From NCBI RefSeq assembly GCF_037042905.1, contig NW_026974149.1, forward strand, positions 1,054,001-1,118,000: a stretch of 64,000 bases of DNA, in the 5' to 3' direction. The position numbers and the translations under genes were made by a program. Below are positions 9,091 to 46,562 of the stretch, piece after piece. Below the pieces are notes generated by a model. The model made no database searches and had not been told where the DNA came from. It saw only the letters and a program-made list of their open reading frames with translations. The stretch comes from Lytechinus pictus (taxonomy: Eukaryota). How positions within the stretch are numbered: position 1 is the first letter of the stretch; each line of letters starts with the position of its first letter.

Positions 9091-12000
9091 TTATGTCTGC
9101 TTAGATTACATTCTTTTGTTATACAAAATCTATCTACATAGACCTATGATTTCATTCACTTATACCCTTGCTCAATATACAAGGTTTATCAAATCCCTGG
9201 TGATCCCCCCCCCCCCCCCCTTTTCACTAAAAGCCCGGAGTCTGTTCGTCACATGTACGCGCTCATGACCGGACACACTCTTCCACTATGTACATACACC
9301 CTCACTTGCACCTTCACACACCTTTCACTCCAAGCTTTCAACACCGTATTGCACACCGAAGTTTATACCCTTCATGAACCTGGATGACGTATTGGATAAT
9401 GCAGTATTTACACCCCAGTGTAGATACTATACTGCCAACGAATTTAATTCAGTTTTTAATACTACCCAAATTAACAAACCAATCCACCTTAGCTTTATGC
9501 ATATAAACATTAGAAGCTTGCAAAAGAACTTTGATACTTTCAGTGAGTTTTTTTTCTATATTGAATACTTTTCCCTTTTCTGTAATCGCTATGTCAGAAA
9601 CATGGTTACACTCAACCACCCCATCCATTTTCAACATTGACAATTATACATTTAAACATAGTGATCGTAATCGTCGAACTGGAGGAGGTGTCGCTTTTTA
9701 TATTCACAATGATTTAAATTTTAAAATAAGACATGATATTCAACTCCAAGGTATAGAATCCTTATTCATAGAAATTATTGATGAAAAAAAAAAATAAGAT
9801 AGTCGGCGTAATCTACAGACCACCAAATAATATCGCCAACATATTTATGGATAAATTGGAATCTTGTCTAGAATTTATATCACACGAAAACAAGGAAACT
9901 TATCTCATGGGCGATTTCAATATAGATATATCTATGCCTCATACACCACTGGGCCAACAGTTTATTAACTTGTTTTCATCTTTTTCATTTAAATCTCTCA
10001 TTAACAGACCAACGCGGATAACAAGTACAACACACACAATCATTGATAATATATTTACCAATGTAGGTCTATTAGATAATTATAATAACAAAGGAATAAT
10101 TTACTACGACATTTCAGACCATTTACCCATATTCACAATTTGTAAAGATAATAGACATTTACAAAAACAACAAAATTTAGAAAATATTACCCGACGAAAA
10201 GAGACTAAACGTAACATAGAAACTTTAAAAACTGATTTGAGTGCAGAGAGTTGGGAAGATGTCTACAGAGAAGAAAATGTTAATAAATCATATGATGTAT
10301 TTTTAAATAAACTTATTCATTACTATGAAAAAAATGTACCTCTGATAAAAATTAAACTAAGTAAAAAGAAGAATAAACAACCATGGATCACTCAAGGCAT
10401 AATTAAATCAATACTCACTCGTAATAGATTTTATAAAATATCACTAAAATCACCTACTCAAGAACATAAAAACAAATACAAAAAATATCGTAATAAATTA
10501 ACGTCAATAATCCGTTTGGCACGCAAATCGTACTTTTCGAACAAAATTGAAAACAATAAAGATAATAATCAAACATTATGCACACAGTAAGCGAAATGTT
10601 AGGTAAGAAAAACGAATGATCTTAACAATGTTGATTTCCTTTTAAACGGACATACAACGAAAAACCCTACCGAAATTGCTGAAGCATTTAATTCTTTTTT
10701 CGCCAATGTTGGTCCTAACCTTGCATCTAGCATTGTCACTAATACCAACAAATTTTCTACATATTTAAATAACAATGCCGAACATTCTTTATTTTTTAAT
10801 CCTACTAATCTTCATGAAATTTTAGAAATCGTCCGATCCTTGAAATCTACTAAATCTTGTGGCCATGATGGTATCAGTGTATATTTACTAAAACAAATTA
10901 TTCATTTTGTGGCTTCTCCCCTTGTACATATTTTCAATTTATCTCTCTTAAAGGGAATTTTCCCGGATCAACTTAAACTTGCAAAAATAATCCCCATATA
11001 CAATCCCCTATTTCATTACTACCAAGCATATCCAAAATACTTGAAAAAATTGTTTATAAACGACTATATTCTTTTCTGGACACAAATAAATTATTAATTC
11101 CCAACCAATACGGCTTTAGGAAAAATCACTCAACTGACTATGCAATCTTACAATTATATGATAAAATACCAGATTCACTTTCCAAAAAAGAGCACACTGT
11201 TGGGGTTTTCATGGATCTATCGAAGGCATTCGATACCATGAATCATCATATATTGTTATGTAAATCAAAGACATATGGAATTAGAGGTATTGTACATTCT
11301 TGGTTTACAGACTTTTTAATTAATAGACGTCAATTTGTTAATTTTAAATCCAAGTCATCCCATACATGTCCCGTTAAATGTGGAGTACCTCAGGGTTCAA
11401 TCCTAGGTCCCTTATTATTTTTAATATATATGAATGATATTGTAAATGCATCACCTTTACTTACATATGTTTTATTCGCAGACGACACTAACATATTTTA
11501 TTCACATCAGAACTGAAACATTCTAGTTGCAACTCTTAATCAAGAATTTAAAAAATTATCATTATGGTTTAAATCAAATAGACTCTCCCTTAACATAAAT
11601 AAAACAAACTTCATGTACTTTAAACATATTAATTCTAAACAATTATTTCGCGACATCATTTATATCAATGATATGCCCATTAACAAAAAAAAAGGAAACA
11701 AAATTTTTAGGTGTATTGATCGATTCTAACGTAACATGGAGTAGTCATATTCGTAATATTAGCATGATGATTGCAAGGGCCATAGGCATCTTGTACAAAC
11801 TGAAATATTATCTATCTCAAAGATCATTACTAATGCTTTATAACTCCTTTATTTTGTCACACATTTCTTACTGTAACATAGCATGGGGAAATAGTAACAA
11901 AATAAAAATAGACTCAATATTACGCCTTCAAAAGAAAGCTCTTCGTATTTGTTATCACTCTCATTATCTCGCCCATACTGATCCATTATTTCATTATTTT

Positions 12001-12695
12001 AAGACATTGAAAATTTACGATATTCACACTTATCAAACTGCCATTTTCATGTATAAATTTTCCAACAACACTATTCCAGCATCCTTCCGTAATATTTTTG
12101 TTTACAACAGAGACATACATTCATACCCTACACGACATTCATCTGACTTTCACCTAACAAATCCAAAAATAATAATTGCTCACAAAACAATACGTCATCA
12201 CGGTCCTGAAGTTTGTAACACTTTGCCGAATAACATCAAACAAGCTACATCTCTTTTTTCCTTTAAAGCTTTGTTAAAAAGGTTTATTGTATCAAAGTAT
12301 TTGTAAAAATCTCACCTGCACATGCACCCACATATGCACCACTTCACCTGACCCCTTTACCCTCTCCCCCTTTTTTTCTTAACATTTCAAATAATTATGT
12401 GACATCATTATTATAGACCAATGAATTTTTCTCTACAATGGTTTTCATGTAGCTGCCTTCCTATGGCTGCTATTCTCTCAAGCATTTTGCTTATGATAGC
12501 TAGCCACTGCATTTTATTTTATATATTATTGCTTACATGTATATCTATGTAAATTATTCTTCTATCATGTAATCGTCGCAATTTGTAAATATTTCATTTA
12601 TTTTTGTATTTCTTTATATTCATTATGATTACTGTGTTTCATATATTGAATTTTTAATAAATGCAGAAACACCTGCAAAAAAAAATAAATAAAAA
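9091..12695 (+). mobile_element. CR1/L2-group (Crack-like) LINE: complete but frameshifted ORF2, 3' UTR, A-rich tail
   Basis: APE endonuclease motifs HINIRSL, SETWL, GGGVA, IYRPP, GDFN, IDNIF, SDHLPIF; RT motifs DLSKAFD, GVPQGSILGPLLF, FADDT; tail at 12677-12695. Confidence 0.93.
9374..12306 (+). pseudogene. LINE ORF2 (endonuclease-reverse transcriptase), disrupted
   Basis: Consecutive ORF pieces 9374-9640, 9531-9797, 9778-10590, 10840-11097, 11211-11516 and 11668-12306. Confidence 0.92.
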
Positions 12696-13759
12696 TAACG
12701 CTGAAAACTTCATCAAAATCGGATGTAAAATAAGAAAGTTATGAAATTTTAAAGTTTCGCTGATTTAAAAAAACAGTTATATGCTCAATACTATGGTATG
12801 CAAAATAAGAGTCAATGATGTCACTCACTAAATATTTTTGTATTGTTTTTATTGCTTGAATTATATATCATTTCAGCTTTTACAGATTTGAAAATTAGGA
12901 CCCTATATTGTCTGAACCAGATAATGTTAAAACAATTTAATTATACATCTTCGGGTAGGAATGCACCTTTATTTCACATGACAATGGGGAGAAAATGAGA
13001 ATATTTCATATTTTATGATAATAAAGGACAAAAAATTGTGATTGGGTTATGTCATCAGTCATCCCATTTGGATGCCAACTAAGATATGCATATAACTGTT
13101 TTGTGAAATTTAGCGAAACTTTAAAATGTCATAATATTCTTATTTTAGCTCCGATTTTGATGACATTTTCAGTGGTATGCTTGTTTGATTTTTTTCTTTC
13201 TATTCAATCAGCTTTTTGTTTGGGTGGACTTGTCCTTGAACGGTGCATGGCTCAGGGGAAGTTGTGCAATGAATTCAGAAAAAAAAAATCAGTGGCTACA
13301 TGATCCATGACGGGGGCGCAATGCCTCTCCATACCGGGCCCCCTGCATAGGTAATTTGCACACTTGGGATATAATTACATTTACAATTTTGAGGGTGTTG
13401 TTGTTATAGGGGTGCATGGGCACGGGCAGGATGTGCCCCCTGGATCCGCCAGTGATTCGTAAGCTCCCACCACAATATAATAAATCACACACAAACCAGA
13501 ATAGGGGTACAAAATTCAATCAACATTATAGGCCTACACGATTCATAAAATGAAAGATGTAATCCAAGGCTGTAATGAATACTATTGTAGACTTAAAAGT
13601 ATTTTTCCTGTAAGCCCATGAATATATATCAACTTGAAATGGATCAATTAAAATTACCGCGTCTTGTCTTAGTATAAGCAAAACAAAATTATAAGCATAC
13701 AACAAAGTCATAATTACAAACATTACAACTGTTTGGACAATAAAAGGCCTAGGCATAGG

Positions 13760-14792
13760 CCTACAAACTATAACAGTCCCGTTGAGTATCGTGATGTTGT
13801 TGAAACAAATTCAATTGCAAATTTTACACTACTAACATGCAGGGGCCGCGGAACCGAGGTGGCGTCATCATCAGCCCCCCTTTTTCCAAAGCCGTGTACA
13901 CTGATACGTAAAAATAACCATATGATTGTGATTTTTAGCCGATGATGGTCAGCCCGCCCACCCCCCCCCCCCCACAAGTTGTCTCAGCTAGCAACCCCCC
14001 ACTTTGAAAAACGTTCCGCGGCCCCTGGTACTTTGATTGTTGCAAAAATACTTGGGGGTTTAAACTTTTAACAATCATTTCGGTCTTATTATAAGCTACA
14101 AACCCATAAAACAAAACAAACATAATCATGAAAACAAAGTCATAATTATAAAAAAAAGTGCTGTTTGTTTTAAATAAATTTACAGTTGCGATACTAGAAA
14201 TGACCGTTACCGTTTGTAATTTTGAAGAATGATACTCGGGAGCAAACCAAGGAACCCACAGACCTACAAACTATAACGGAGTCCCGTTGAGTATCGTGAT
14301 GATGTTGAAACAGATTCAATTGCAAATTTTACACTACGTTCTAACATGCAGGGGCAGCAGAACCGAGGTGGCTCATCATCAGCCCCCCCCCCCTTCCAAA
14401 CCGTGTACAAATACGTAAAAATGACCATATGATTGTGATTTTTAGCCGATGATGGTCAGCCCCCCCCCCCCCCCCCCCCCCACTTTGAAAAACGTTCCGC
14501 GGCCCCTGGTACTTTGATTGTTGCAAAAATACTTGGGGGATTTAAAATTTAAACAATCATTTTGTCTTATTATAAGCTACAGACCCATAAAACAAAAAAA
14601 ACATAATCATGATGGTTAATATAACCTACAAACCCATAAAACATGCAAACATAATCATGAAAACAAAGTCATAATTATAAACAAGTGCTGTTTGTTTTAC
14701 ATAAATTTACAGTTGCGATACTAAAAAATGACCGTTACCATTTGTAACAATTTTGGAGAATAATACTCGAGAGCAAACCAAGGAACTCACAC
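13760..14792. repeat. Tandem duplication of ~500 bp, each unit with a CAGGGGCCGCGGAAC-type MITE
   Basis: Units start CCTACAAACTATAAC at about 13760 and 14263 and both end GAGCAAACCAAGGAAC. Confidence 0.88.
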
Positions 14793-15872
14793 ACCGCACC
14801 GCACCAACCCCTCTGCCCCCCCCCCCCCCTTCATCAGTTTGAGTAATAGGTCCATGGTATTGGCAAACACAGAGAGTAGAGAGCAATTACGATAGGCCTA
14901 CATGGAGCAGGGATATGCGTATCCCTGGTTCGAACATGCAGGCATGCTACGCAATAAATCCAAGTGGTGTTGGGATTTCTATAAATAGTCACACAGACGC
15001 ACTAAACTGGCCTTTGACCTCTTACGACCGCATGAGACCGTATCATAATCACAATCAGCGCTCACAATCAGTGCGATGACACAGCGGCAGTGGGAACGTG
15101 GGGATTCTTTGTAAACACAGACACGCTGATCGGCCAAACTGCAATGGCACTTCGCAAACGCCGATGTGTATATGGGAACGTACTTCCTAGAAGCAAAACA
15201 CTTGTTCCTCGTCGCTCGTTGCCCCGCCTCCACACATCAGAGCACCAATCAACGATCATCTATGAGCATTGCACACTCTCATCGGAAGAGGGCGCTACTA
15301 ATTAATACATGGCACAATTTTGAAATGCAACGAACTTTCTGTCACAACGGACTCCTGCAACTGAAAGAGGGTCACTTATATTTCATATTTCTATAAATAC
15401 ATCCAAAAATTTTTGTGATGTGAGATTTTCATGACGGCATTTTAATATTGTAACTGTTATACCCATACTATTTTCAGGTATCAACATTGAATTTTTTTAA
15501 AACAGGGAGCGATGTTTTGTTTTGCCTTTAAACTGTCATTTTTTAAAAATCGAAATATCAAAATTTTCAGCTTGCGCTTCGCGCTCGCATCTATTGTTCA
15601 TTTAGATACATGTCTTTATCATCGGTACCATAAATGCTTAAAATATTAAGCTTTCTGTTCAGAATATATCGCTCTCAGCACTTGCATTATCTGTGTAGTG
15701 AGATATGTATTCTCATCATGAGTTACTACAATCAGTCCTAAACAATTACCTTTTTCCTGTTTTCAGGACAGTATACTAACAAAATTCAGCTCGCGCTTCG
15801 CGCTCGCATTAATTTGTTGGTGAGATATGTGTCTCTGTCTTATGAGTCATATATATATATATATAATGCAAG

Positions 15873-15996
15873 GTGAATAAAACAACCGTTGAGAGAAAAG
15901 TTGATCAAATTTTCGCCCATAGGGCTTCATTTTTCCTAATGAAGCCCTATGGGCGAAAATTTGATCAACACTTCTCTCAATGGTTGTTTTATTCAC
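15873..15996. repeat. Near-perfect 124-bp hairpin between (TA)n tracts, probable MITE
   Basis: GTGAATAAAACAACC...CCCATAGGGCTTCATT pairs with AATGAAGCCCTATGGG...GGTTGTTTTATTCAC. Confidence 0.85.
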
Positions 15997-16050
15997 TCTG
16001 TATTTTGCTATATACTATACCACAACCGACGCAGGACCTTCATTTTTATT

Positions 16051-16125
<75 letters not shown>

Positions 16126-16202
16126 ATATATGTATATAGGCCTATGTGTGTGCGTGTGTGTGGGTTTGTTTGTTTTGTGTGATCGAGCGCCTTTGGAACG
16201 TT

Positions 16203-16895
16203 AGTAGTATATATAGGTACCCCTCGGGTCCTCGGAGGAGCAGGACTGCTCCTCGATGACGTCATAATCCGATTATAAAAATTATTCCGATTATAAATAA
16301 TAGAAATATGAATCATGAAATATTCTATATTGTTCTAAACAATAGAATATGAAATATTAATAAATAAATTAATCAATAATTAGGAAATATGAATCGATAA
16401 TTATGAAATATGAAAATATGGATTAATAAATTATGAATTATGTATCCATGAATTATGAAATATGGATTATAAAAAGACGGTATGACATAGTGACGAAACC
16501 TGAAAAAAAACAAATGACGTCATAGGGTTTGCACAACATCCATATCCATACTAAAAAACAAGAAGAAAGTAAAGAAACGATAGACATGTCTCGGACATGT
16601 CCATCGCATAGAGGCGATGCGTGCCTGACCATACGAGCGTGACGATAGGCCTATTGCACAACTTTTGAAAATATTGCATGGACTTTTTTTGTACGTTCGT
16701 ATAGCATTATCTACGAGTACAGTCGATAATAGTATCGGGTATTCCCTCAAGCATGACGTCAATGCACACTCGATCGTTCGTGCGTAACGATATTGCATAA
16801 GTTTGAATATTACATGGTAGGGTAAAGTGTGACATTGAATTTTCTAAACAGATAACATTGTTGATTTTTAGCATTAAATCTTAACTTTTTATACT
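16203..16895 (+). repeat. Left TIR of the Polinton-like element
   Basis: Reverse complement of 29708-30533. Confidence 0.93.
16582..16602. promoter_or_regulatory. Consensus p53-family response element in the TIR (mirror copy at 29999-30019)
   Basis: AGACATGTCT-C-GGACATGTCC is two perfect RRRCWWGYYY half-sites with a 1-bp spacer. Function untested. Confidence 0.6.
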
Positions 16896-17439
16896 CTCAT
16901 TGAAGTAGGGGGACGTGGGTATATTTTCCCCGCTCATTAAGCCAATGCATGCTTGATCATTCGAGCATAACACGGTACTTACATGCCAAATATTCAAATT
17001 CGACGTTGCACCACCACAATGTGCGTTGCGTAATCTGATAATCTTTAGTGAATCCTCTGAATCCTAATTAGTACAATTACGTTCCCATATAATTACGAAT
17101 CATCATTATTGTCACCAATTCCCATATCAGGTCTATACGCTACCCGTAGGTTATATTGTATAGTTGGTTGTTACACAGTGTTAAGTGAGCAGTGATGTGA
17201 GTGGTGGAGGTGTATGATTTCCTGTAGAACAAGCTAAATCATCCAAGCATGCACATCTTCATTTTCAATATATGGTACGGGCTTTGTACTACATCATGTG
17301 CTTGTTTATGTGTGAGGGTGTGTGTGTGTGTGTGTGTTTTTTAAGGAATCAAATACAATAACCTCAAAAGCAGAAGTCTTTCTGTTTCTTGTAATTGTCG
17401 TTTCATGAATTGAAAAAAGAGTTTTTGGTGCAACTTGAA

Positions 17440-19297
17440 TTAGTGAACGGCTGAACTAGTCGATTATCTTTGGTTTCATCATAACATTGTTTTAAAAGAA
17501 AATATATATTTTTCGTCATATTGTAGTATACCTTGCAGTACTTTTCATAATTTCTATTGTTTTAATCCGGGGTTTTAAATATGGCAAAGCGAAATCACGA
17601 TGGCCCGAATATTGATCGTGTATATCGAAGTATCCCCAACAACCATGAAAATATACAGCGTTAAGTTTTAGTATGATCCTAATGAATGCAAATACCCGTA
17701 GAGGATAAGAGTATTCCATCCCTTGGACCCAAAATCACATCGAATATCGAATTTAAGGGCACGCAACAAGATAATGTTCCGATCGATAGTTCGAAAAAAC
17801 GAAGATGCGCAACAGTTAGGCACACCGAATTACCACTTACTTATGGTGTATGTATTTGTTGAATAATTATGTAATGTGGCCGATTTACACATTTATCGCC
17901 ATTTAAGTAGAACTTTCACCGTTTGGTAAAAATGACATACACCTCGAACATTTTATCGATATAATAATGGGACTATGCTTTGATCAGAACTTCAGGTGTC
18001 TTATTTTTCACTCCGACCTCTTCTGCATAAAATTATGCGACAATCTTCTTGCTGTAAACTAGAATAGTATAGTAATAACATCCAGTACCATCATAAACCC
18101 GCGTACAAGTTTGCATAACAGCGGTACACCACCGTGAGTTTTCATGTTTCCAACTCTTTATATTTTTGTAAGAAAGATAATTCTCGTACAAACCTGTCGT
18201 AAGGAAAAAGCTATTGGATGACGTCACACTTCTCGGTTTGACAAGAAGACGATGTATATTGTATAATCGGAGTGCAGACATAATAGTCACGTGCGGGGAT
18301 CAATCGATCGAAAAGAAGTTGGGTGCATTATTCACAGAATGGCCAATATGTCATTCACTGGAGAGAAAAAAAATCCCCACCTTGGAAATGTCTAAATCCC
18401 CGAATAGTAAAACTTTTAAAATGAACATCATGAAGAAATGGTCATATCCATAAATCAACCCATTCCTAAACCTTGGTTAATCCACAAAAGCTTCATATCT
18501 TTGCACAAACCCAAGTAAGCCATTCGGCCATATGCCTTTCGAACGTCATCAAGTGATTTCGTGAGCCAGTTACCCATGAAAAGAAAAATGGGGGAACTCA
18601 TCTCAATACCGTAATGATTAGAGTAGATAGAAGTCCAGATTTGCTTTATTTATATACATGTATATTGATGTTTTATGGCGTCAAAAGCAGATTCAATAAC
18701 TTGTTATCTTCCCTAGTCTAATATTCTGCAATTTTTGTTTTACCGTTATTGCTATTAGTCGTTGGTTTTTCTTTACTTTCAAGCAATGAAATATATATAT
18801 ATATATTGAATGATATGAACTTTATTTTTTACATTTCTATTTTAACCTATATAATTATAACTCTTGCATGGGTTGAAATCATCACATCATCGTAATTGTA
18901 CTTTCTTTTTCGCGAAAATACAATGACAAGAGGGTAACTTTGATGTTAATATGCCAATGATTTGCCTAAGTGTGCTCTTTACTCCATCGGTCTGATCATC
19001 TTTTGATCAATGCCCAGAGACAGAATCGACTAGTTGAATATCTTGAAAGGCGGTCAGTATAAGCAATTCAGTATTGATTTTAGTCGCTCTTGCATAGAGA
19101 TATCAGCAAATACACAAGTACAGAAGAAGTCCTGAATAGCTTCACTGATTCTATTGTATACTCCTCAAAGAGGGGTATGACATCATCTCCCTTGTATTGC
19201 ATCTGACACGTCTGAGGGTACTTTCCAGACTTACAAACTTTCAAGTTCTGTCAAGATGCGGTCCCTTTTAGAGGTGTAGGGTAGCGATATTTTCCAT
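17440..19297 (-). pseudogene. Decayed ORF of unknown function, left copy of an inverted paralogous pair
   Basis: Peptides shared with the right copy: DRILTELESL / DRILSELESL and EYSYPLRVFAF...FHGCWGYFDI / EYSYPLRIFAF...FHSCCGYFDI. Confidence 0.55.
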
Positions 19298-21820
19298 AAT
19301 ATACTATATATCACTTATATTTTCATACCCTATTCCATTTAAAGTTGATGTACAGTATTCAACTCTCACCCGTTCTATGTTTTTCAAAATAACCTTTTTA
19401 AATCTTTAACATTTTATTCTTAATGTTTACATGCACTATGAATTTGCTGCGTCATTTACATGTATATATTCACTTTAATGCTACATTTAGCTATAGGTTT
19501 TATGTGTAATATTAATTTAGAATTGTTAAGTTGTGTAAATGTTTATGTATATCCAAAACTTTTGAACACACAGTACCAAATCTTTGATTTCTTTACATTT
19601 ATTTGAGTTTCATAGATATCCTGTATGTTATTAATAATTCAACGATGATGCCAATATAAAGCAGTTGATTTATTATTTTTTTCATTTTTTCTAAAGTATT
19701 GAATTCTTTTATTATTATCTTTGCTGTTTTTTCAATAAAGACACATGTTTGCAGTGATGTAATAAAAAAGATTCCACATCTCCCTGCATTATACTGTAAT
19801 ATCACTCGTTCATTCCATTATCCTTTTTATACGCCCCTTTGTCCCCCCCCCCCTCTCTCTCTCTCTCTCTTTGTCCTCTTTCAGACTCGCGTGAATCAAT
19901 TTTAATGTTTACATCTGACATCATCCTTTATCTATACATTCTATCATTACCACCTCTTTACAATTTTGCTTCCTTGCACATAACGGCCTCAATTAAACGA
20001 TTTACACAGAATATTTTTTGTACTACACTAAAAAACGTATAATAGTGTGCATCATGCTTCTTAACAAGCTAATCTTCTTACAATTTTATTACATTTCTTT
20101 ACTTAACTCAATATCAATAATAATTATTCTTTTTGAAAAACTCCATCTATCCATTTTAACTAGTCAACAAATTAAAACTCAATCTCCAACTCTCCTTCGA
20201 TCATTCTTATATACTAATATTCTAATATACTCTATCTCCTCTTCTTGCATGTCCATCTCCCAATTTTCACTCCCCTTTCACCATTATCAGCATACTACTC
20301 ACTTGATTTGCTTAATTTTCCATCAGTACTTTACTCATCATCGTTTTCATTCTTTTTTTCTTTCAATTCTCATATCATCAATCTATAAACTGACAAAAAT
20401 GAATAAGCCAGACACGTCATATGGGGTATGTAAATTTATTATATTTTTATCACACCATAATTACATGAACAAAACAATATATACATATTGATAGATGGAA
20501 CACAAATAATATGTAATTTAGATATAGTTATATTGAACTGCAGGTTATGATCTTGCACAATTACACTTTGCTGTATCTTTTTTTAATACAAATAATGTAT
20601 CATAATGATTAAAATAAATGTATGTACACTGAAATGAAAAAAAAATAATAAAAAATTGTCATTCATACCTTCTTAAAGTATATTTCATGACTTTATCATG
20701 TTTGCAATTTTAAACAGTACCAAACAGGATAACAAAATCAAATTACACGTTGGTTGTTTTTACAATATTACGGACAAAGTCAAAGCCTAACTTAATTTCT
20801 TCTTTTTTTTTTTACTTTAGAGACGAGAAGTACAAACGATAATACATTTTCAATTAAAACAATCGCAATTCGAATCATATAAAAGAGGATTGTATAATGA
20901 CTATCACTCTACTACATTTCATACAGTATTTTAAAAGTGTAAAACTAATAGGTAAATATTTACAAAACTTCATACTGTGAAAATAAATATGTGTTGTTTC
21001 TTATGTTGCATATACAAGAATAGCATGTAACTATATCAATGATGAATTCACCGTTATGATTTTTCACTAAACATGTTCTTGGTAACATCCCCAAATATTC
21101 AATACATCTTTTAAACAAACTTTACTGAATGCAATTAACTATCAGATGATGTTTCGTTTACATCCATAAATCTGTGAAATACCAACGTATACATGGTACA
21201 TGTACATTTTAAGGTACATATGATTATCTGAATCAAAATACAAGTCAACTCGGATTGTAATACAAAAATATAACATTATGCTATATTCAACAACAACAAA
21301 GTGCATCGTCAGGTTTGATACAATAATGAAATATTCTTAAGACCATTCTCTTATTTCAAATGGATGAAAGCAAATTGTTGCAAAGGGGTTTATTATATTT
21401 TGTGAAAGTAAATTGTATTCTAATAATTGTGAACTCAATATACATTATTGAAAACAGATTGTGAAAGCAAAGTGTGCAACATTTCGTAAAAGTTACTTTT
21501 ACTTCAGCAATTGTGAATTCATATTGTTGAAAAGAATTGTTAAAAAACAATTGCTCCAATTAAAGAGTATGTAAATGTACCACAAAAATCAATAAAATTT
21601 TGATTTGAACACCATTACCTTTTATACATAATTCCTAATCCACAGGATTACTCTCAACTAACATGGTATACAAATAGTTTACCGAAGGAAAAATTTTTTG
21701 CAGGTTATTTTCCAAAATGTATGAATTTGACACAGATATATCACAGCTAACTTTTAAATTCAATGCATTGAAGAGAGAATGTTCTGATAGAAAGTTTGGA
21801 TGGAATAAAAGTTGCAAATG

Positions 21821-24800
21821 TCAGATATCTAAGTAGGTAGTGGATACATTATCATCCAATACTTTTCTTTTTGGATAGAAATAGGTGAATGCATTCTTTA
21901 TTTGAGAGTAGGTGGAGATTCCATTTTGGACAACGCGAAAACCTTTGTTTACACCACTCCCAGCAACTAGTGAACGAAGAACGTTCAAGTACACATCTTT
22001 TGTTATGTTATTTTGCTTGTTATTAACACCCTTGCAGCTGAATTTGTCAGTAGCACCAAAGCAGTAATAAGTTTTACTGCAGAGGGCTATGATTCCATCG
22101 CCTTCCCACTCTACTTTGAACAACCCATGAGTTCTCTTATCATATCGAGCATTCTCCAGGGTATCATTTCGAGGGAACCAGTTGGCTTTGTCTTTTTCGT
22201 ATCTTTCCCTCATACATGGTTTGATTATGTCATCGAAAGAATCGGATGAAATGGCGATGTAAGCGGAATCTGTGTCCATTTCACACATTTGAAAATCGGA
22301 TGGCTCAACATATTTTAGCAGAAAGTCATAATAGAACTGTAGCATGCGCAGTTTGGCCAACTGGTATACAGCATGACTAATCTGAACTGGCAGGTCCATA
22401 TTGATCTTTCGTTTAGCCATATAAACTTCATAGCAATTGTCAGAGATTGGGTTTAGATCCCTGAAAAGGGTATTGTTGACATGTTTCTGGGCTTTAGCCT
22501 CATCACAGACATTAACATTTCGATGTTTTTCCTTATTAGTAATCGTCTTGCCGTAAGACGAATTGCCTATCAGCTTTATGGTGTCAGCGATAATGCTCTT
22601 CGAGGGATCAACATCATCTTTGCGTCGAGCTTTTGAAACGCTTTAACCAAAGTGCTTGAAGCAGGCAACTGGTTTGTACTCAATGAATTGGTGGATCTTG
22701 CTGACCACCAATCCATGGTTTAGGTACCATCTTAGAAGTGGTGTGTAGAGCAGAATGTTCTTACCAAACATACTACCGATCAGACTACGCCTTGGAGTTT
22801 TCATGATACCCATGTTCCTTGGCATAGAATCCCATCACATCTCCGATATCTTCTCTAGATATATCCACATTTTTGAAAATAGGACACATTTCAGAGAAGT
22901 ATTACCTGAGATGATCAGGGACCTTAATATCACACTGTACAAGCCCAAACAGGGCACCATGATGAATAGCAGAGAGAATGTTGTCTTGGGTTAATCCTTG
23001 ACGGTATTTAGGAGGGGAAAGTCTTTGTAAGAAATGCACTGAGCTTGGGATCAGTTTTACGCATTTTTTTATATTGGCATTCCCAGATGGAGATGTATTC
23101 GTAGCACAACCCTTCTACATTTTCTTGTTTCTCTTGAGTCTTTTTGAGTAAGTCTGCCATAGACTTCCCAAGCTTCGTATTTTTGGTCTGGTCTTTATTC
23201 AGATGGCATGAATGTCCATGGAAGTAACATCCATGGAATTCAAACACCTGTTTAGTTTGAGCACAAAAAACATCGACAGGGAGCTGAAGGGGACCAACTC
23301 TCTTTTTTTAATGATTACCTGCATGTCGGATAGGGATCTGTCGAGAGAAAATTTGATATTGAAGCCATTCTTGAGCGATTGGATGCTTATTTTCAGGCTT
23401 GAAATCATTCTCTGCCCTTCGTCTGACAAAGTGCCCTGTTGGCATCTTTTGCATTATTGCATGCAGGTACAAGGCATTTTTATCGAAACCTATGATCTTT
23501 TCACATGGCTTGCCCCCACGAATCGTTGTTACACCACGTTCATGATACCTATGAAATATAATGGATGGACCTCCTACCAGATTATCGCGGAAAGTATAAT
23601 AAAGATCCTTGTCTTTCTCATAGATTACGCTGAAATGCGCATCTGGACTACACTTCATGAGGTATTTTATGGTGAGTCCAGGTACAGAAATACCATCTTT
23701 GAACATATCGATTTTAAGATTCTTGTAAAAATCGCGCATTTTCTCTACCGCCTCAATGAACGGCGTAACATCGAGGTTATTGTACCATATTAGATAATCT
23801 CTTAGACTTCTCATGTTATTCTCTTTCCAGATTCGCTGACAGTATTCATATTGGTCTTGTGATAAAGCAGTATGATTGAGATTGTTGCTGAAAGTTTCAA
23901 TAAGGGGAAGTTCAGGTATTTTGAGTTTTTCCAGACAATCTACCCACCCGTGAGGAAAGAAACCTTTCATTCGTTCACAGTCATATGCTTTAAGAAAGGC
24001 TGCGTATGAAAAGCCAGGTGCAAGAAAATTAGAAATATCAAGAAACTGAAGGTGCTTTGATTTCAGAGCCATATGATTATGGTTCCGCTTGATGACGTAA
24101 TCAACAGAATCAAACTGTAGAAGTTAAGGATAGAGGTATTGTTTGATGGCATTGATATCATACCTCCCGGAATTGGACCCAACCACAGGGAGTTCTATGA
24201 TATGGTTCATGAAACGCTTCTTCAATCTCTGAAGATGTGTAGCTTTGTGAGGCGTTTCATTGTTTGCCTTCTGCCAACTCTCGTATTCTTGTATTGTTTC
24301 ATCTAATTTTTCTATCACATCCTGGTAAGAAGATTCTAGGAGAGAGCAAGAGTGCTTACTTATTTCCAGGAGGTACAATATCGAGTCATCAATTAATTTT
24401 TTGCAGTCTCCATCAGACACTTGGCAGTATGGTTCTGTGTACCCAGGAATATTTGAGTTGATACTCATGCTCATAGGGATGTGTCTTGAGGTAAACATTA
24501 GTTTTTCAGTTGGAGCATCGTTGGGATCTATATTATTGTCAATCTTCTCGAGATAGGATTCTATGTCAAATGTGGCAAAGTATGGAAAGTAGCGCCGTTC
24601 TTCTTCGACAGAGATGCCTTCCTCAGCCAGCTCTTCCCATATGGTCAAAGGGTTATGGAATGTAGCCCTGCCCGTGGGGAAAATATGCTTGGTGGCTGTA
24701 GAAGTACATATTTTCTCGTGTCGATGAAGTGATTTACGGGTTTTCATAGTTTGTCACATGTACGACATTGATAGTTTTGACAATATCTGTCAATATCTGA

Positions 24801-25733
24801 GATGAAACTAAAATGGTTTTCATATAGATTGACATACATTGTTTCCGGAAACTTGTCCAGTCCTCGTCTCACGAGCTTAGCAGCAACTGTACTTTCACTA
24901 TTTACCAATTCACCTTCATTTTCAAGAGGAATATTATCACCGTTGGTACATTCGACTGGCTGTAATTCGTACACCATGATATTAATCTTGAAGAATTCTT
25001 CGACTTTTTCCAATTTGCTTAGATCTCTTCCTTCAAAATCTGAATTTTTTTTTGTGAGGCACATACTGTTTAAATAATCTTTTAGCTGTAGTTTCAAGAC
25101 CATGAGAATTAGCACCTTGTAATAAAGCTAAACATCTAAAAATGCATAAGTTATCATCATACATCTGACAATCCCTATGACTCTTAACCAGAGATACGAT
25201 AGCTTGATTATTTTGTATATAATTTGGGAGGTCAATTCCGTGGCCAATGGGATGATCAGCAATTCGAAATACATAAAAAGTGACATTTGTGACATGCTGA
25301 ACGACCAATTTAGAATTTGGGCGAAGGGTTTGAGCATATTCAAGGATATCTTCCTTGAGTAATGTATCCAAAAACCTTTGGAATGACGAATGGTCAGAAA
25401 TAAGAACAGGTTCATTCAGAATCTTTGTGTTTGTACTAGCGTAATAATACCTACATTCATTGGTTTCATTGTTGCAAAGAGTAAATCCATACGATGCATT
25501 AACTTTGAAAGCTGTAGATTGATCCTCAAACACCTTCTGAGCCTTCTGTCTAAGGATATCATTGTTTAGATCTGGAAGATGGTAGTTGTAAAATCGATGA
25601 ACCCTTCCAAATGACCGTCTGTCTCTGATATTCAGCCAATGTTCCCTGTATACTTGGGCGGCACAACTCTTAGGATCGATGTCAGAAGGAAGGTTTACCG
25701 TGGTTGGTGCTAGGTTAGGTTGTTGACGGCGTC
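21821..25733 (-). pseudogene. polB: Protein-primed family B DNA polymerase (pPolB), multiply frameshifted
   Basis: DNLCIFRCLA; ExoI FDIES, ExoII NSGRYD, KGFFP, ExoIII YNNLDV; motif A FDKNALY..MPTG; motif B KLIGNSSYGKT (about 22544-22576); motif C MDTDSAY; KTY; KGV. Confidence 0.95.
23008..23300 (-). other. Vsr-like (PD-(D/E)xK) endonuclease domain inserted in pPolB between motifs A and B
   Basis: FEFHGCYFHGHSC ... YEYISIWECQY pattern. Confidence 0.75.
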
Positions 25734-26368
25734 CTGAGTAAAGAGATAATATTGAGATGTAAGAGATAATAAACACCATAATTTGAGTAGAGTCAGAGCA
25801 AGTATTTTTGCTTGGAAAACTTTTTGGTTTAAAATATTTGCCCATCCATTCATTTCAAATAACTTGAAACTTTTACTAATCATGCGATAGATGTTTTCCA
25901 TTCAGTTTCAAAGTTACCTGGGTTGTCATAATTTATGAATATCTAAAGTATTGGTAAAGAGTCAGTAATCATCAAACATTACGAAATTTTAAAGTGCAGT
26001 CGTAATTAAATGCATGTTGTACCCATTCGAATATTGGTTTCTTTGTTATATCTCTTTGCAATCTAGTAGAGAAGAAAAAAAAGGTGTTTCATGTAAGATT
26101 GAACCTATAGAGGGGGTCAAAATATAGACATACATAAATTATGCATGAAGATCAATCAAGAGAAAGAGAGAAAAACAGTGAAAGCTTTTTTTTTTACAAT
26201 TTTATAATATTGTGGGATCTCAAGGAGAACGAAATGAAAAAAATTACGTTAATGCAATGATTATAAGAGAAATTATATTTCAAGCCAGTTCTTGAAAGTT
26301 TAGAAAAAAAAGTACCAAGCAAAATTGACCTATTGAAGAAAAAATAATAATAAGATAGAATAACTTAC

Positions 26369-26810
26369 TTTTTGCTTGGTTTGACTCTGGTCCATCGGCA
26401 ACTCGCTTCTTTGGTAACTTTGGAGGAACGGGATTATGGTGCGACATTTCATGTTTCATAAATTTCGCACGATTATGAAATATCTGCCCACAAGTATGAC
26501 AAAGATAGGTTTCCTTGCGATGCGATTTCATGTGTTCATCAAGGTCCTTTTGCTCCAAGAACAGTGATTTGCATTGTGAGCAAGTTGGTCGCTGGTTCTC
26601 CTAATCAGGTTCAGCACCATTGCTAAAATCCTGATGAGTTTTCATATGACGTTTCAAATTATCCGGTCGACTAAAAGCTTGTCCACATGTATCACAAACA
26701 TGTAAAGTCCTTTGCCCATGATGGAACATGCGATCATGACGCATCAAATTTCTTTTAACAGTAAATTCTGCGCTGCAAATATCACAGCTGAAGGGAGGGT
26801 TGTTCTCAAT
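26369..26810 (-). pseudogene. Four-C2H2 zinc-finger exon with one in-frame stop; probable 5' exon of the pPolB gene
   Basis: FSCDICSAEFTVKRNLMRHDRMFH, VCDTCGQAFSRPDNLKRHMKTH, TCSQCKSLFLEQKDLDEHMKSH, YLCHTCGQIFHNRAKFMKHEMSH; ends at an A|GTAAGT donor. Confidence 0.85.
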
Positions 26811-27429
26811 GATGATTGTAAATCCAAAATGTACTTGTACAGAAGATACCCAAAGAGAACTCTATAAATATTGGCTTAGGTATTAAGTTGCTGGAACTCG
26901 TAGGCTGAGGTATAAAGTTCCTGTTCTGGAAGATTTCAGATATGTACACCTCCAGTGCTCCTCAAAGGTAGAATGGACAAATTATGTCATGCAGGTTGTT
27001 TAAATCTCCCTCTCCACTATTTGAGGTGGGGGATTTCCTGAAAGTTATGTAATACTGTCATGGTTGAATGATTTTACTGGCATGTTCTGACAGGAAATTA
27101 CACACATCCACCACACACTGACACGTGTGCTTGTGCAGTTCTTACTCTGTTTCACACAACAAAGTACAACCAGCTATATAATATACTGGTAGTGGTTATC
27201 CTATATGATCCACTACAATGATGATGGTTAATATTGCTTGTTGACCAATGTTCAAATGTGTAGACTCATGGTATAAAGGTATTATCAAGATTATTGAGTT
27301 AAAAGATACGACAGAAATATTATTAAAGAAAATAAAACAGATGAGACTGAAAATACTTATACCGAGGCTTTAGTAAATTGTGACATAATAAACACCTACA
27401 AAGAACAATACAACAACAACAACAAAATG

Positions 27430-27870
27430 AAATATTTTACCCTGTACACTAACAAGGATCGCATCTTGTCAGAACTTGAAAGTTTGGAAATAAAAAGTCC
27501 CGCAAGTGCAATAAGGGGGAAATGGTGTCATAACTTTCTTTGAGGAGGAAGACAATATAATTGGTGAAGCTGTTTACGTCTTCTTCTTAACTTGTTTATT
27601 TGCTGATTTCTATACAATAGCGAACAAAATCAATATTGAATTTCTTACAGACCGACCACCTTTGAAGAAATCAAACTAGTCGATTCGGTCTATGGGTTTT
27701 GATCAAACGATGATCCGATCGATGGAAGAAAGAGCACACTGGTCGTTGGCTTTCTCTACAATTTCGCGAAAAGAAAAGTACTATTACGATGATGTGGTGA
27801 TTTCAACCCATGCAAGATTTTATGACTATACGCGTTAAAATAGAAATGTAAAAATAAAGTTCATATCCTT

Positions 27871-27904
<34 letters not shown>

Positions 27905-29605
27905 CATTGCTTGAAAGTAAAGAAAGAATAAACAACGACTAAAAGCAATAACGGCAAAACAAAAACTGCGAAATAATGGAGTAGAAAAGATAGTTACTTA
28001 AGTTGTTACTAAATCTGCTTTTGACGTCAAAAACATCAACATACTTTTAGCATAAAGCAAATCTGGACATCTATTTACTTTAATCATTTAGGTATTGAGA
28101 GGAATTGCCCCATTTTTGTTCCATGGGTAACTTGCTCACGAATACACTAGATTTTTATGACATTCGAAAAGCCTACTGCTTTTTTTTTTTTAAGGATGGA
28201 ATAGTTGCCATTCTGTGAACACGACGATGGACATAATGTACACAACTTCTTATCGATTTTCCCGCACGCGACTATTGTACCTGCAGAAAGTGTGACGTCA
28301 TCCAATAACTTACCAACGACAGGTTTTGGCTAGAGTTTTTTTTCTTTGAAAAATAGATAGAGTTGGAAAGTTGAAAACTTACGGTGGGTACCCCCTTTTT
28401 GCAAACTTGTACGGGTCTACGATATAGAATGTTTCTAGTATTCCTTATTATTCTCGTATAGTATTTATATAATATTCCTTATAAGATTGTTGCATCTATA
28501 TTTAGATGTAGAAGAGGAGTGAAAAGAGCTTGATGTTCTGATCAAAATATAGTCCTATTATTATATCGATACAATGGTCGAGAGGTGTGTATCATTTTTA
28601 CAAAACGGTGAAAGCTTTACTCTGCAGTAAATGTGTAAATAAGCCACATTACATTTCTTTTGCAACACCATAATCAAGTTGAAATTCGGGGTGTGTTACT
28701 GTTACGCATCTTCTTCTTTTTTTCTTCTTCTACTTCTTCTTCTTCTTTCTTTTTAGGAACTATTGGAACATTATCTAGTTGCGTTACCTTTGATTTCGAT
28801 GAGTGGATGATAGGAACAATTGAACCATTTGAATAACAGCGTGAAATTTTTATAAATAGAATGCGATTGGATAGAAACAGGTAAAATAATGTTTTTTTTT
28901 CTTTGGCTGCATGAACAAAATGAACAAATTGAACAAAATGTATTTGTTTTTGTTTATATATTTTGACTACATTATATTTTTCTTTAACTATTTATAGATG
29001 CTAAATGCATCCCTTGTTCATTTTACACGAATTACTTTTACACAAGGCGATATGTTTTAGTTACCTTATTTATTTCTTCAGTGTAGATTTACTACGAATC
29101 GTTTGAATAAATTAAAATGAAAGAGATGGATGATAGAAACAAAATGAACAATTTGAATAATAGCGTGAATTTCTTGTAAATAGAATGCAATTGGGATAGA
29201 AAAAGGCTTTTGGTGTAAATAATGTATTTTGTGTTACAAATAATGAAAAAAAAAGTGAATTGAACAATATGAATAAAATGAACAAACTAAACAAATTGGA
29301 CTTTGTTGCGTGTCCTTTGATTTCGATTTCATTTCGGTCCAAGGGCTGGAATACTCTTATCCTTTACGGATATTTGCATTCATGGGGACCATAAACATAT
29401 CTTGTTTTCATAGTTGTTGCGGATACTTCGATATTACTCGATAAATATCATATGATCGAAGAAGCGATGTTCCCCTTGCCAAAATTAAAACAAAGAAGTG
29501 AAACGTTATACTGTAATATAATAACATAGCAATGGGTTTCGTAATATTTTTTTTTTATTGTTGTAATGATGAGTGAGAAAAGATGATCGATTAGTTCAGC
29601 CGCGT
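27430..29605 (+). pseudogene. Decayed ORF of unknown function, right copy of the inverted pair
   Basis: Collinear reverse-complement similarity to 17440-19297 including a shared (TA)n tract; extra ~0.5 kb at 28800-29305. Confidence 0.55.
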
Positions 29606-29707
29606 ATATACTTCGATATCGATTATATCAAAACACTTTGCAATTTCTACATTCATGACATTTAAGGGAGTTGGATTTCGACATATAAATGAAACATTTG
29701 TTTTTTA

Positions 29708-30533
29708 AGTATAAAAAGTTAAGATTTAATGCTCAAAATGAACAATGTTATCTGTTTGGAAAATTAATTGTCACACTTTATCCTACCATGTAATATTCAA
29801 ACTTATGCGATATCGTTACGCACGAATGATCGAGTGTGCATTGACGTCATGCTTGAGGGAATACCCGATATTATTATCGACTGTGCTCGTGAATAATGAT
29901 GTACGAACGTACAAACATTCCATGCAATATTTTCAAAAGTTGTGCAATAGGCCTATCGTCACGCTCGAATGATCATGAACGCATCGCCTCTATGCGACGG
30001 ACATGTCCAAGACATGTCTATCGTTTCTTTACTTTCTTCTTGTTTTTTTAGTACGGATATGGATGTTGTGCAAACCCTATGACGTCATTTGTTTTTCAGG
30101 TTTCGTCACTCTATGTCATACCGTCTTTTTATAATCCGTATTTCATAATTTATGGATACATAATTCATAATTTATTAATCCATATTTTCATATTTCATAA
30201 TTATCGATCCATATTTCGTATTTCACAATTATCGATCCATATTTCATATTTCCTAATTATTGATTAATTTATGTATTAATATTTCATATTCTATTGTTTA
30301 GAACAATATAGAATATTTCATGATTATCGATCCATATTTCATATTTCATAATTATTGATTCATTTATTAATATTTCATATTCTATTGTTTAGAACAATAT
30401 AGAATATTTCATGATTCATATTTCTATTGTTTATAATCGGAATAATTTTTATAATCGGATTATGACGTCATCGAGGAGCAGTCCTGCTCCTCCTGCTCCT
30501 CCGAGGACCCGAGGGGTACCTATATATACTACT
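29708..30533 (-). repeat. Right TIR of the Polinton-like element
   Basis: Reverse complement of 16203-16895, with extra internal duplications (9 bp and about 90 bp). Confidence 0.93.
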
Positions 30534-30971
30534 AACGTTGATTCATGATTTTGCCCCCCCCCCCCATCTGAAAATGGATCGACGCCCCTGTCTAAATGCA
30601 TAACAAACCTCGATATAATCTTCCTTTGTACGTTTCATAATCATTATTCGGTCAATTTAGAGTATAGATCTACTTTGATTTAAAAGGACAATATTTGGTT
30701 TATTTTCTTAAATCAAACGAAATGACACTTGTAAGAGATGGTTACTGAAAATCAGCAAATGCCTTTCCAAGTCAAAGTTATTGGTCATTTGAGTCTAAAT
30801 TGAAAAAGGACCCACACCCTGAATTTTGAAAATCAATTTGAATGTAGTTGTTAGCTTTCTGTACTTGAAAATATAAGTTTTCAATTGTAATTATATCTAG
30901 TCTGTTTTTAAAGGAGAAATTCAAAGCACCTCCAAAAATGCAATTAATTTCAAGCAGAAATCATGTAGAAC

Positions 30972-45515: not shown

Positions 45516-46562
45516 AGAAGTACATGTATGCCATATCCTACATGTAAAGCTGATGTTTATTCTTGTACCAAGGCAGCCCTCATCTAATCTTACATGGAGA
45601 AAATATGTGTTACATGACATGCTAAGAATTCAACAAAGATTTTCCTATTTGCGATTTCTGTTAAAATTACCTTCGAACAAATTGCTTATGTATTTCTTAA
45701 ATGTGAATATGAAATTTTATTTTGGAATGAAGTTCACGAATGGTTAAATGCCATGCATATAAAACTACAAAATTTAGTGACATTGAAATTTGTTTTGGAG
45801 TTATAACCTTCAATAACTTTTTTTTTCACCAATGTAATTGTTGTTTCCAAAATGTTTCTTTTATTCATGTAAATACAAGAATATCAAACCCACTTTTGCT
45901 CACTTTACACTTCGTTTGGAAAAAATAGAAACTGAAAAAATTATTGCTTTTAAAAGTGAGTGATAAATGTTGAAAAGTAGAATATTTTGTGTAGAAAATG
46001 GGGCAGATTCTGTTCCCCATCTACAGTTTGCATGATAAATCCGCCGCACGAAATTTTTCAACTGCATCGCCCGCTGACTTTATATTTCAAATATGGCGCA
46101 ACTTTTGAGACCAAATTTGCGATGCCCGGGTACGCGGTTATAAAATTACGCAATATTATGTACATGTAGGCCCCAAAACTGCTAAAAACGTGAAATCATC
46201 TACAAATTCAATGCCAAGTTTGTATTTAGTCAAAATTCTAAATTTATCATTATAACTACTTTTACTGATTGAACTTAATTTTGTCTTGCTTATGATCTTG
46301 GGCCCGTACCACAAAACTTAGCAATGATCGTAGAAACACTTTTCTACGATTGATTCCACTGACTACAATACACAGTCAATCTCTATGACATGACTTCTGC
46401 TTTCCTTGACAGAGCCGCAGCAGGTGTGCTCAGTCCAGGGCATGTACATGTATGATCTTTTAAAGTGATGTGGACATTGCTCTGGCTCCATTTCTGCTTT
46501 TATTAATTTTTCATGGTGAACTTATCTTCAACACCTAAAGCCAAACATTTGCGAGACACTAA

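Follow-up and report, generated by a model that had tools for sequence, protein, structure and literature searches.

A probable self-replicating Polinton satellite with a single, predicted spliced zinc-finger polymerase gene in Lytechinus pictus

Polintons are defined by the joint presence of a polymerase and an integrase, and copies lacking the integrase are usually dismissed as products of decay; non-autonomous Polintons are known in Repbase. The alphasatellites of gemini- and nanoviruses, which are circular ssDNA molecules with a rolling-circle Rep, have their own replication protein and obtain the rest from a helper. Closest to the locus described here are the Polintons/Mavericks (adintoviruses) with a pPolB2-VSR polymerase which share with it AGTAGT ends, target site duplications (TSDs) of 6 bp and long terminal inverted repeats (TIRs) (10.1101/2023.08.22.554363, PMC8502044, PMC11071296). 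Also similar are the TIR-bounded pPolB1 loci of C. elegans, which lack an integrase and were presumably moved in trans, as described in 10.1101/2024.01.15.575659. Cytoplasmic linear plasmids are reported in PMC11161782 to have arisen from polintons that lost their morphogenetic module. A search of freely readable main texts found no paper on a polymerase-only or split Polinton family.

We analysed a stretch of 64,000 nucleotides of L. pictus DNA (NW_026974149.1, positions 1,054,001 to 1,118,000), referred to below as the window. The element which it contains is a decayed copy of what is probably a Polinton satellite that replicates itself and is integrated by a helper; its sole gene, a predicted spliced zinc-finger (ZnF) pPolB, lies between long non-coding inverted arms (Table 1).

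The ends of the element read 5'-AGTAGT...ACTACT-3' and are flanked by a 6-bp TSD, as in autonomous Polintons, and its outer TIRs (about 690 bp) are 96.2% identical over aligned columns. Since the TSD is palindromic, it could by itself belong to the TIR; four further elements carry this tip next to exact non-palindromic TSDs (C19, ATGGCG; C17, AGCATT; C20, CACACT; C14, AACAAT), and they fix the boundary and back the termini and TSD proposed in an earlier, sequence-only reading of this DNA. The tip of the left TIR, AGTAGTATATATAGGTACCC, is common to the elements at C19, C15, C17, C20 and C14. A further TIR segment is 73–81% like the TIRs in one family of canonical pPolB1 Polintons (C3:55.08-55.10 Mb, C17:1.56-1.58 Mb, C8:8.02 and 34.68 Mb) and is absent from the C19 TIR. 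Members of this family have TSDs and open integrase and capsid frames, and the C3 copy has identical 530-bp TIRs.

Table 1. Features of the element, in window coordinates
Feature	Position	Strand	Remarks
Left TSD copy	16197..16202	.	AACGTT, palindromic
Left outer TIR	16203..16895	+	about 690 bp
TIR segment like canonical pPolB1 Polinton TIRs	16291..16601	+	TIR nt 89-265 and 305-399
Left inner arm	16896..19298	+	non-coding; homologous to inner part of the 3,446-bp C19 TIR
3' region	19299..21820	-	non-coding; collinear with C19 (80%), partly with C15
Exon 2	21821..25733	-	protein-primed family B polymerase, pPolB2 type with VSR-like insertion; broken in window
Predicted GT-AG intron	25734..26368	-	joins ZnF to pPolB; window and C19 copies both have donor and acceptor
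Exon 1	26369..26810	-	four C2H2 zinc fingers; one stop breaks window copy
Right inner arm	27437..29707	-	non-coding
Right outer TIR	29708..30533	-	
Right TSD copy	30534..30539	.	AACGTT

The ZnF-pPolB gene was recovered as first read: the pPolB is found at 21821-25842 and the C2H2 fingers span 26280-26861 (Pfam, E down to 8e-12). A database gene model at C15 (P0004) is spliced at the place matching the predicted intron of the window and C19 copies. The element carries a protein-primed family B polymerase, as autonomous Polintons do, in a broken copy: the polymerase exon contains 4 premature stops (the terminal stop would make 5) and 4 non-triplet indels, and the ZnF exon one further stop. Polymerase homologues carry PF03175, and the window-family polymerase also matches resident pPolB1; the protein P0001 alone has no Pfam match at E<=0.01. 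P0001 shows a putative Cys and a putative His motif in what would be the order expected of N-terminal terminal-protein/vOTU domains; a single-sequence fold prediction of the polymerase N-terminus has a pLDDT of 34, too low to be of use. As in the pPolB2-VSR class, a VSR-like nuclease insertion is present in the polymerase (the profile of A1 matches 1vsr, 1odg and 1cw0 at E 1e-4; Pfam Vsr on the window polymerase piece gives E 0.083). Two RNA runs, of each of which about 6% was sampled, yielded 27 and 15 reads, none across the splice joint, and none of the listed public runs containing the stretch is recorded as RNA. A poly-A loose end past the ZnF exon (4 reads) coincides with a genomic A-run and was rejected. 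Neither an episome nor a pile-up of molecule ends was seen in the contigs and the sparse RNA reads, material that could hardly reveal free linear DNA.

None of the remaining genes of autonomous Polintons was found in the element: RVE integrase, major and minor capsid proteins, packaging ATPase and adenain protease. In a tblastn search of the window element with 39 probe proteins there was no integrase, major capsid protein (MCP), ATPase or minor-capsid match below E 0.5. A set of 11 profile HMMs, which picked up 3 of 3 decayed canonical elements used as controls, gave no match at E<=1 on the copies in the window, at C19 and at C15. The absence of these genes, which had been noted from the letters, is confirmed, and no remnants of them were found in the regions thought to be decayed. 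Protein probes were used for the capsid because the Pfam DJR family PF21738 had no match in the genome, was silent on the control and misses a true MCP; PF04665 recovered one locus among many. For the integrase, 110 of 674 candidates were scored; the best 21 matches correspond to 17 loci, of which 14 lie near a pPolB1, while the window tip is absent from the remaining 3. A pair of capsid probes with 31% likeness to each other leads to these loci as well, with every candidate scored (20 of 20 and 18 of 18). Every integrase or capsid gene found belongs to canonical pPolB1 Polintons or to their remnants.

The regions on either side of the gene, formerly interpreted as an unknown ORF with an inverted paralogue and a stretch of decayed small ORFs, proved to be non-coding. 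The right inner arm is 76% identical to the left one and 81% to the C19 arm (aligned columns), and the inverted likeness of 17609-19271 to 27449-29448 (72–77%) is at the DNA level: only 11–14 of the 54–59 indels between arms are triplets, the majority of tblastx matches pass through stops, and the longest frame in the young C19 arm is at most 132 aa. Triplets likewise account for only 12/39, 3/27 and 2/24 of the indels in the 3' region. An Rfam search of two C19 stretches gave no match. The gene map first drawn therefore stands for the TIRs and the ZnF-pPolB and falls for the unknown ORFs, since the element holds one gene.

The map is not unique to the window. The element at C19:4647614-4662238 (14,625 bp, TSD ATGGCG) is an independent insertion, collinear with the window element from end to end, with identical 3,446-bp arms and an open polymerase frame of 1,340 codons; its left junction is spanned by contigs of three public runs (one of which, X1, may be the source of the assembly). 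The C15 locus has the ZnF, polymerase and 3' region in common with the window element, an open frame of 1,338 codons and one TIR end. The full map is thus seen in two copies, C15 lacking its second end, while three independent loci keep the polymerase gene, which is open in two. A copy upstream, C29:1043187-1052152, shares its left flank with the window and was rejected as an independent insertion; it is a segmental duplicate. No full-length element with a window-type polymerase was found in the assembly, and with a collinear insertion at C19 and a common core at C15 the idea of a unique deletion copy fails.

The polymerase is under purifying selection between copies having the one-gene map: dN/dS is 0.148 for C19-C15 (dS 0.48), 0.137 for C19-window and 0.257 for C15-window, against 1.23 (dS 0.014) between the window copy and its post-insertion duplicate. 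A selected replication gene together with missing helper functions is what is expected of a helper-dependent satellite. dS varies along the gene between pairs, and these swings fit recombination. dN/dS values of about 0.001 are reported for cyprinid Mavericks in PMC8097293; those of the window family (0.14–0.26) are far above, which counts against the satellite reading.

The tip pattern has 34 matches in the assembly (0 in the control), and no integrase or capsid gene was found in the stretches fetched around them. All 12 tips aligned start with AGTAG, and canonical families have only about 7 terminal bases in common with the window tip. Three elements (C17, C20, C14) carry the window tip and TSDs and a small zinc-finger/acidic gene, and lack a polymerase; the subterminal blocks of C19 and C20 are 94% alike over 824 bp. 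The anticipated second TIR-sharing class without pPolB therefore exists, with this small gene in place of the expected integrase and capsids. Among 721 candidates, none linked the mini gene to an ATPase tail at E<=1e-5, which is weak evidence against such a link. Candidate polymerase-less partners were discarded: C2:41.72 Mb has pPolB1 17 kb further on, C16:4.56 Mb and C2:13.43 Mb are both truncated and without the window tip, the tip at C2:42.08 Mb belongs to another family, and the 32.7-kb C14 element has no core gene. Scans of viral contigs found neither a relative nor the tip, and a prokaryote collection did not contain the tip.

In a polymerase tree of 72 rows (FastTree; L137, L145 and L079 were removed because their coverage was short, and L077, L105, L128, L131 and other broken loci were left out), the window polymerase falls in an 18-row branch (SH-like 98) that also holds Apostichopus, Holothuria, Amphiura, Exaiptasia and a cluster with Diadema members. 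No member of this branch has a known full context; the 5.5 kb upstream of L076 contain no core genes, and contexts in the branch are too short to decide. It is conceivable, though we lean against it, that this whole branch of echinoderm and cnidarian pPolB2 elements has shed its integrase and virion genes and persists in the nuclei of animals as linear, protein-primed replicons with a single gene. It would then be the centre of a modular consortium of Polintons, where ends, integrase and capsids pass between the polymerase element, the palindromic zinc-finger minis and canonical viruses.

For the satellite itself, the following cycle is proposed. In an excised or episomal linear copy, synthesis would start at the element's own tip, with the terminal-protein domain of its own pPolB2 as primer, and proceed by strand displacement, so that no helper polymerase would be needed. 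Pairing of the arms during copying could keep them alike, over the whole 3,446 bp in C19 (100%) but, in the lineage of the window element, over no more than the outer 690 bp; carried to the centre, it may produce the palindromic minis. A resident RVE integrase would act in trans on the common AGTAG end and leave the 6-bp TSD, and a capsid might also be borrowed from ordinary Polintons of the same genome. We infer the use of a helper integrase indirectly, from the TSDs, the common AGTAG tip and the common TIR segment; that so few terminal bases are shared with canonical families counts against it. Elements copied in the same nucleus could exchange end segments, as the canonical-family piece in the window TIR suggests, and the satellite polymerase may in turn serve minis having its tip. 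A replication-only satellite integrated in trans, proposed at the outset, thus gains support from the lack of core-gene remnants and from the sister copies.

The earlier alternative, a bipartite or multipartite Polinton in which the element would be the segment for replication, its same-tip partner (integrase, capsids, ATPase and protease) would not be integrated here and the zinc-finger minis would be further segments, ranks second and seems unlikely to us. Different single-gene classes do share one tip and subterminal blocks (C19/C20), and matching termini are expected of segmented viruses; copy number is low, and in a second species tip-like contigs reach a summed depth of 320–590 against about 30 for the flank, depth not being copy number. 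With the gene preserved at just three independent loci, an equally rare partner might be absent from a single assembly. No partner was found in this one, however, and the segments seen do not jointly encode capsid and integrase: none of the 34 tip matches lies within an element carrying either, all capsid and integrase loci found are pPolB1 families, and at least four canonical families also carry the mini gene on their ends, which suits a promiscuous satellite rather than a dedicated segment.

A reading in which these elements arose by deletion from a full-length pPolB2 Polinton that this assembly lacks, are non-autonomous with no need of their own polymerase, and owe the selection signal to that parent through descent or repeated recombination, is in our view quite improbable. 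Such products have precedents: C. elegans has TIR and pPolB remnants without integrase (10.1101/2024.01.15.575659), and C2:42075651-42091606 is a TSD-flanked, internally shortened canonical element. Most pPolB2 relatives sit in full Polintons (of 34 metagenome loci where the polymerase is followed by at least 1 kb, 28 have another core gene in that stretch), the two polymerase-only proteins nest within the pPolB2 of full Polintons, and the mosaic dS shows exchange. No parent was found in the assembly, however, and the C19 and window elements have their non-coding frame wholly in common (70–80% identity) with no differing breakpoints, so the one-gene map predates their split; contigs of the second species run from the polymerase end into the same 3' region, over the same inner arm boundary, and a polymerase dN/dS of 0.14 was kept across dS 0.48 with open frames at two of three loci. 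A polymerase domesticated by the host, with the arms as passive remains, would account for one spliced C2H2 gene with open frames at two loci, the gene model P0004 and few RNA reads, but it is hardly credible given that the identity of the 3.4-kb arms, together with exact TSDs, means that the element moved recently, that copies lie at unrelated sites and that integrated duplicates decay neutrally (dN/dS 1.23).

On the satellite reading, the one-gene form has persisted over a synonymous divergence of about 0.5 with a selected polymerase and clean insertion. This points to Polinton lineages complementing one another in trans, and to an equivalent, in animals, of the passage from Polintons to linear plasmids. 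The family would offer a laboratory sea urchin system for questions on free linear Polinton DNA and integrase specificity. Censuses demanding pPolB and INT within 20 kb would miss a polymerase-only class.

Compared with Polintons, the window family has a VSR-like insert in its pPolB (PDB 1vsr, E 1e-4) like the pPolB2-VSR members and a similar size (14.3–14.6 kb against 13.8–18.7 kb in four resident canonical elements), but it lacks integrase, MCP, minor capsid, ATPase, protease, PZ and PW, and has one gene with a predicted intron and non-coding arms of up to 3.4 kb. In contrast to non-autonomous or remnant Polintons, its map recurs as clean TSD-flanked insertions with a polymerase under purifying selection. 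pGKL-type and mitochondrial linear plasmids (PMC11161782) also combine TIRs with a pPolB whose N-terminal region is long, and have no genes for morphogenesis, whereas the window family is chromosomal, known here as integrated sequence, with integrase-type TSDs, a predicted intron and neither RNA polymerase nor helicase. Bidnaviruses and Vesanto virus have segments with matching termini, one with a Polinton-type PolB (PMC8502044, PMC11071296; see also PMC8363768), but these are ssDNA, encode parvovirus-type NS1/VP and do not integrate. Alphasatellites are alike in working logic and unrelated to the window family, so that they serve as an analogy only.

The insertion at 16203..30533 is complete: both termini and the exact 6-bp TSD claimed in the sequence-only reading are present (see table). 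The TSD is itself a palindrome, and the boundary is fixed by exact non-palindromic TSDs at four other insertions sharing its terminal sequence, the tip. The outer TIRs (~690 bp) are 96.2% identical over aligned columns; inside them a weaker inverted likeness (72-77%) reaches ~19300 and ~27440. The sole gene lies on the minus strand and includes a four-finger C2H2 exon (ZnF; Pfam) and a polymerase exon. Their intron is graded as predicted because no RNA read crosses the splice; its GT-AG sites are present in the window element and in a copy on contig C19, and P0004, the L. pictus database model of the C15 copy and the closest protein match, is spliced at a matching place. The polymerase exon encodes a pPolB2-type enzyme that carries a VSR-like insertion, a class described in the accessible part of 10.1101/2023.08.22.554363. 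In the window copy its frame is broken by 4 premature stops and by 4 indels of non-triplet length, and the ZnF exon has one further stop.

Features of the window and of related loci in the L. pictus assembly (G000)
Feature	Coordinates	Boundaries	Content
Window	G000:C29:1054001-1118000		
Window element	window 16203-30533	start AGTAGT, end ACTACT; TSD AACGTT both sides	
Segmental duplication	C29:1024562-1052152 vs window 13347-25182	ends inside polymerase	left flank and element's left 9 kb, 97%
C19 element	C19:4647614-4662238	TSD ATGGCG	independent insertion
C17 mini	C17:9747982-9754021	tip-bounded near-perfect palindrome	two copies of 232-aa ZnF-acidic frame
C20 mini	C20:8817011-8822079	tip-bounded near-perfect palindrome	two copies of 232-aa ZnF-acidic frame
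C14 element	C14:1097426-1130135	32.7 kb, TSD-flanked, tip-bounded	decayed ZnF-acidic gene, much inserted repeat DNA
Canonical probe source	C12:14690594-14704413	TSD GATAAT	
Distant polymerase	C12:18252030-18256943		broken pPolB2 (53%); no other core gene within 18248001-18278000
Tandem arrays	C15:2051213-2099276; C312:21527-24449		at least 12 units, mostly ~2.87 kb, each two consecutive TIR ends with flank; TIR end amplified satellite-like
Decayed arms	C11:558764-583287; C11:3550597-3571752		no polymerase; split by retroelements
Decayed arm	C13:24963736-24967060	3.3-kb element with another tip	no polymerase
Polinton	C2:42075651-42091606	TSD-flanked; tip of C3:20.66 Mb family	split integrase, minor capsid, pVII-like gene; no polymerase, MCP, ATPase or protease match
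Nested Polintons	C8:34647060-34682895		canonical element apparently inside one of a different family
2.7-kb element	window 46561-49261	420-bp direct repeats (99.5%)	minus-strand 468-aa frame, presumably gag-like; likely young gag-only LTR element
Two frames	window 9772-12303		272 and 235 aa; taken to resemble LINE endonuclease and reverse-transcriptase pieces
Minisatellites	window 52146-53181; 62466-63412		ACCAT-rich; 25-bp and 84-88-bp units

The unknown ORF and inverted paralogue proposed earlier are not genes: triplets account for 11-14 of the 54-59 indels between the arms (the long inverted repeats), stops interrupt most translated matches, and frames in the young C19 arm do not exceed 132 aa. 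The supposed ~2.5 kb of decayed small ORFs in the middle region has the same non-coding pattern, and the arms may still contain short spliced exons. The claimed absence of integrase, capsid, ATPase and protease stood. With probes from a canonical (pPolB1) Polinton and from full pPolB2 Polintons of metagenomes, tblastn (39 proteins, E<=1) gave only noise on the window element; 11 profile HMMs (E<=1) matched none of the three copies (window, C19, C15) and detected 3/3 decayed control loci. Neither search found integrase or capsid remnants in the decayed regions.

Two polymerase searches of the assembly (7/7 and 37/37 candidates scored) gave close copies on C29 (two), C19 and C15, plus a C5 fragment and, on C12, a distant broken copy that may belong to an older lineage with only a polymerase. 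The other C29 copy has its left flank in common with the window element and was set aside as a segmental duplicate. Several independent insertions with the same map had been named as support for the claim. The C19 element is one in full: it is collinear with the window element end to end (69-84%), its polymerase frame is open (1,340 codons) and its 3,446-bp arms have zero mismatches. Three public runs, possibly including the one behind the assembly, bridge its left junction. The C15 copy shares only the core, namely ZnF, a polymerase with an open frame of 1,338 codons and some of the 3' region; it diverges at the inner arm boundary and has one TIR end, amplified as a tandem array. No core genes were found around it (2016001-2102000). 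Polymerase, 3' region and arms are also present in short contigs of a second species.

The 20-base tip (<=1 mismatch) has 34 matches in the assembly, including the polymerase copies and the C15/C312 arrays, against 0 for a control pattern. The anticipated second TIR-sharing class lacking pPolB exists in the C17, C20 and C14 elements, but these carry a ZnF-acidic gene and no integrase or capsid. This gene has at least 150 matches in the genome (150/303 candidates scored). At 20 loci examined (16 drawn at random from the top of the ZnF-acidic list, plus 4 more), the mirror arms of these small palindromic elements, or minis, match ends belonging to several canonical families; the Polinton families whose ends occur on minis number at least five. 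ZnF-acidic frames that are almost identical sit on different ends, which indicates that ends are exchanged. Palindromic minis of 4.5-6.4 kb with a 232-238-aa ZnF-acidic gene include loci L003, L033, L040, L168-L176 and L186. The window TIR is a mosaic, nt 89-265 and 305-399 being 73-81% like the TIRs of one canonical family (C3:55.08 Mb, C17:1.56 Mb, C8); the C19 TIR is without such a segment. Aligned tips all start with AGTAG (12/12) and have little else in common.

Over ~1,290 polymerase codons, dN/dS was 0.148 for C19-C15 (dS 0.48), 0.137 for C19-window (dS 0.48) and 0.257 for C15-window (dS 0.20); two post-insertion duplicates gave 1.23 (dS 0.014). Since the C19 and window elements have the entire non-coding frame in common, the one-gene map predates their split and, judged from these ratios, the polymerase was kept by selection within it. 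These ratios far exceed the ~0.001 given for cyprinid Mavericks in the accessible part of PMC8097293; post-insertion decay would raise dN/dS of these copies. Along the gene, dS differs several-fold between pairs, which fits recombination and would leave room for exchange with an unseen full-length parent. That selection on the polymerase is borrowed from such a parent is nevertheless quite improbable, given the age of the one-gene map and the retention of the polymerase within it.

A partner sharing the TIR and carrying integrase and capsid had also been suggested. When the best 110 of 674 candidates for an integrase probe were scored, at least 21 Polinton-type matches fell in 17 loci, all of which were fetched. 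pPolB1 lies nearby in 14; the other three, considered as polymerase-less partners, were rejected as truncated or internally shortened and without the tip. Two capsid probes (31% alike) converged on the integrase loci and two small fragments. As these probes found no tip-sharing integrase or capsid element in the L. pictus assembly, it is unlikely that the window element is one segment of a split element. Canonical elements with open frames and TSDs are candidate helpers.

Among the best 80 of 435 metagenome loci with this polymerase type, another core gene is present in 37; of the 34 loci where 1 kb or more of sequence follows the polymerase, 28 have such a gene downstream. In a FastTree phylogeny (SH-like support only), two polymerase-only proteins nest inside the pPolB2 radiation; their branch has 18 rows, from echinoderms, Exaiptasia and other records, with flanking sequence too short to classify element type. 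Because these proteins are nested among full Polintons, gene loss in the polymerase-only lineage is, on this tree, derived.

We favour, with a probability of roughly 0.6, a joint reading as self-replicating linear DNA with arm pairing, integration in trans and possible helper packaging. The pPolB-bearing element would copy itself as linear DNA, arm pairing would homogenise the arms and yield fold-back minis, a resident RVE integrase would insert the element in trans, and helper capsids might package it. In Polintons the pPolB brings its own terminal protein and a vOTU domain (accessible part of PMC11161782), so a TIR-bounded copy with an intact pPolB would have a protein-primed replication core, the domains here being putative. 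The element matches canonical Polintons in size, its coding part being less than one third; this possibly bears on helper packaging, yet 5-kb minis move too.

Autonomous Polintons have five genes (integrase, major and minor capsid, ATPase and protease) that are absent from the window element, whose family behaves like their replication module. Non-autonomous Polintons are recorded in Repbase. In C. elegans, loci with TIRs and pPolB but no integrase are mentioned as remnants in the accessible part of 10.1101/2024.01.15.575659. No description of a selected polymerase-only Polinton family was found in the openly searchable literature.
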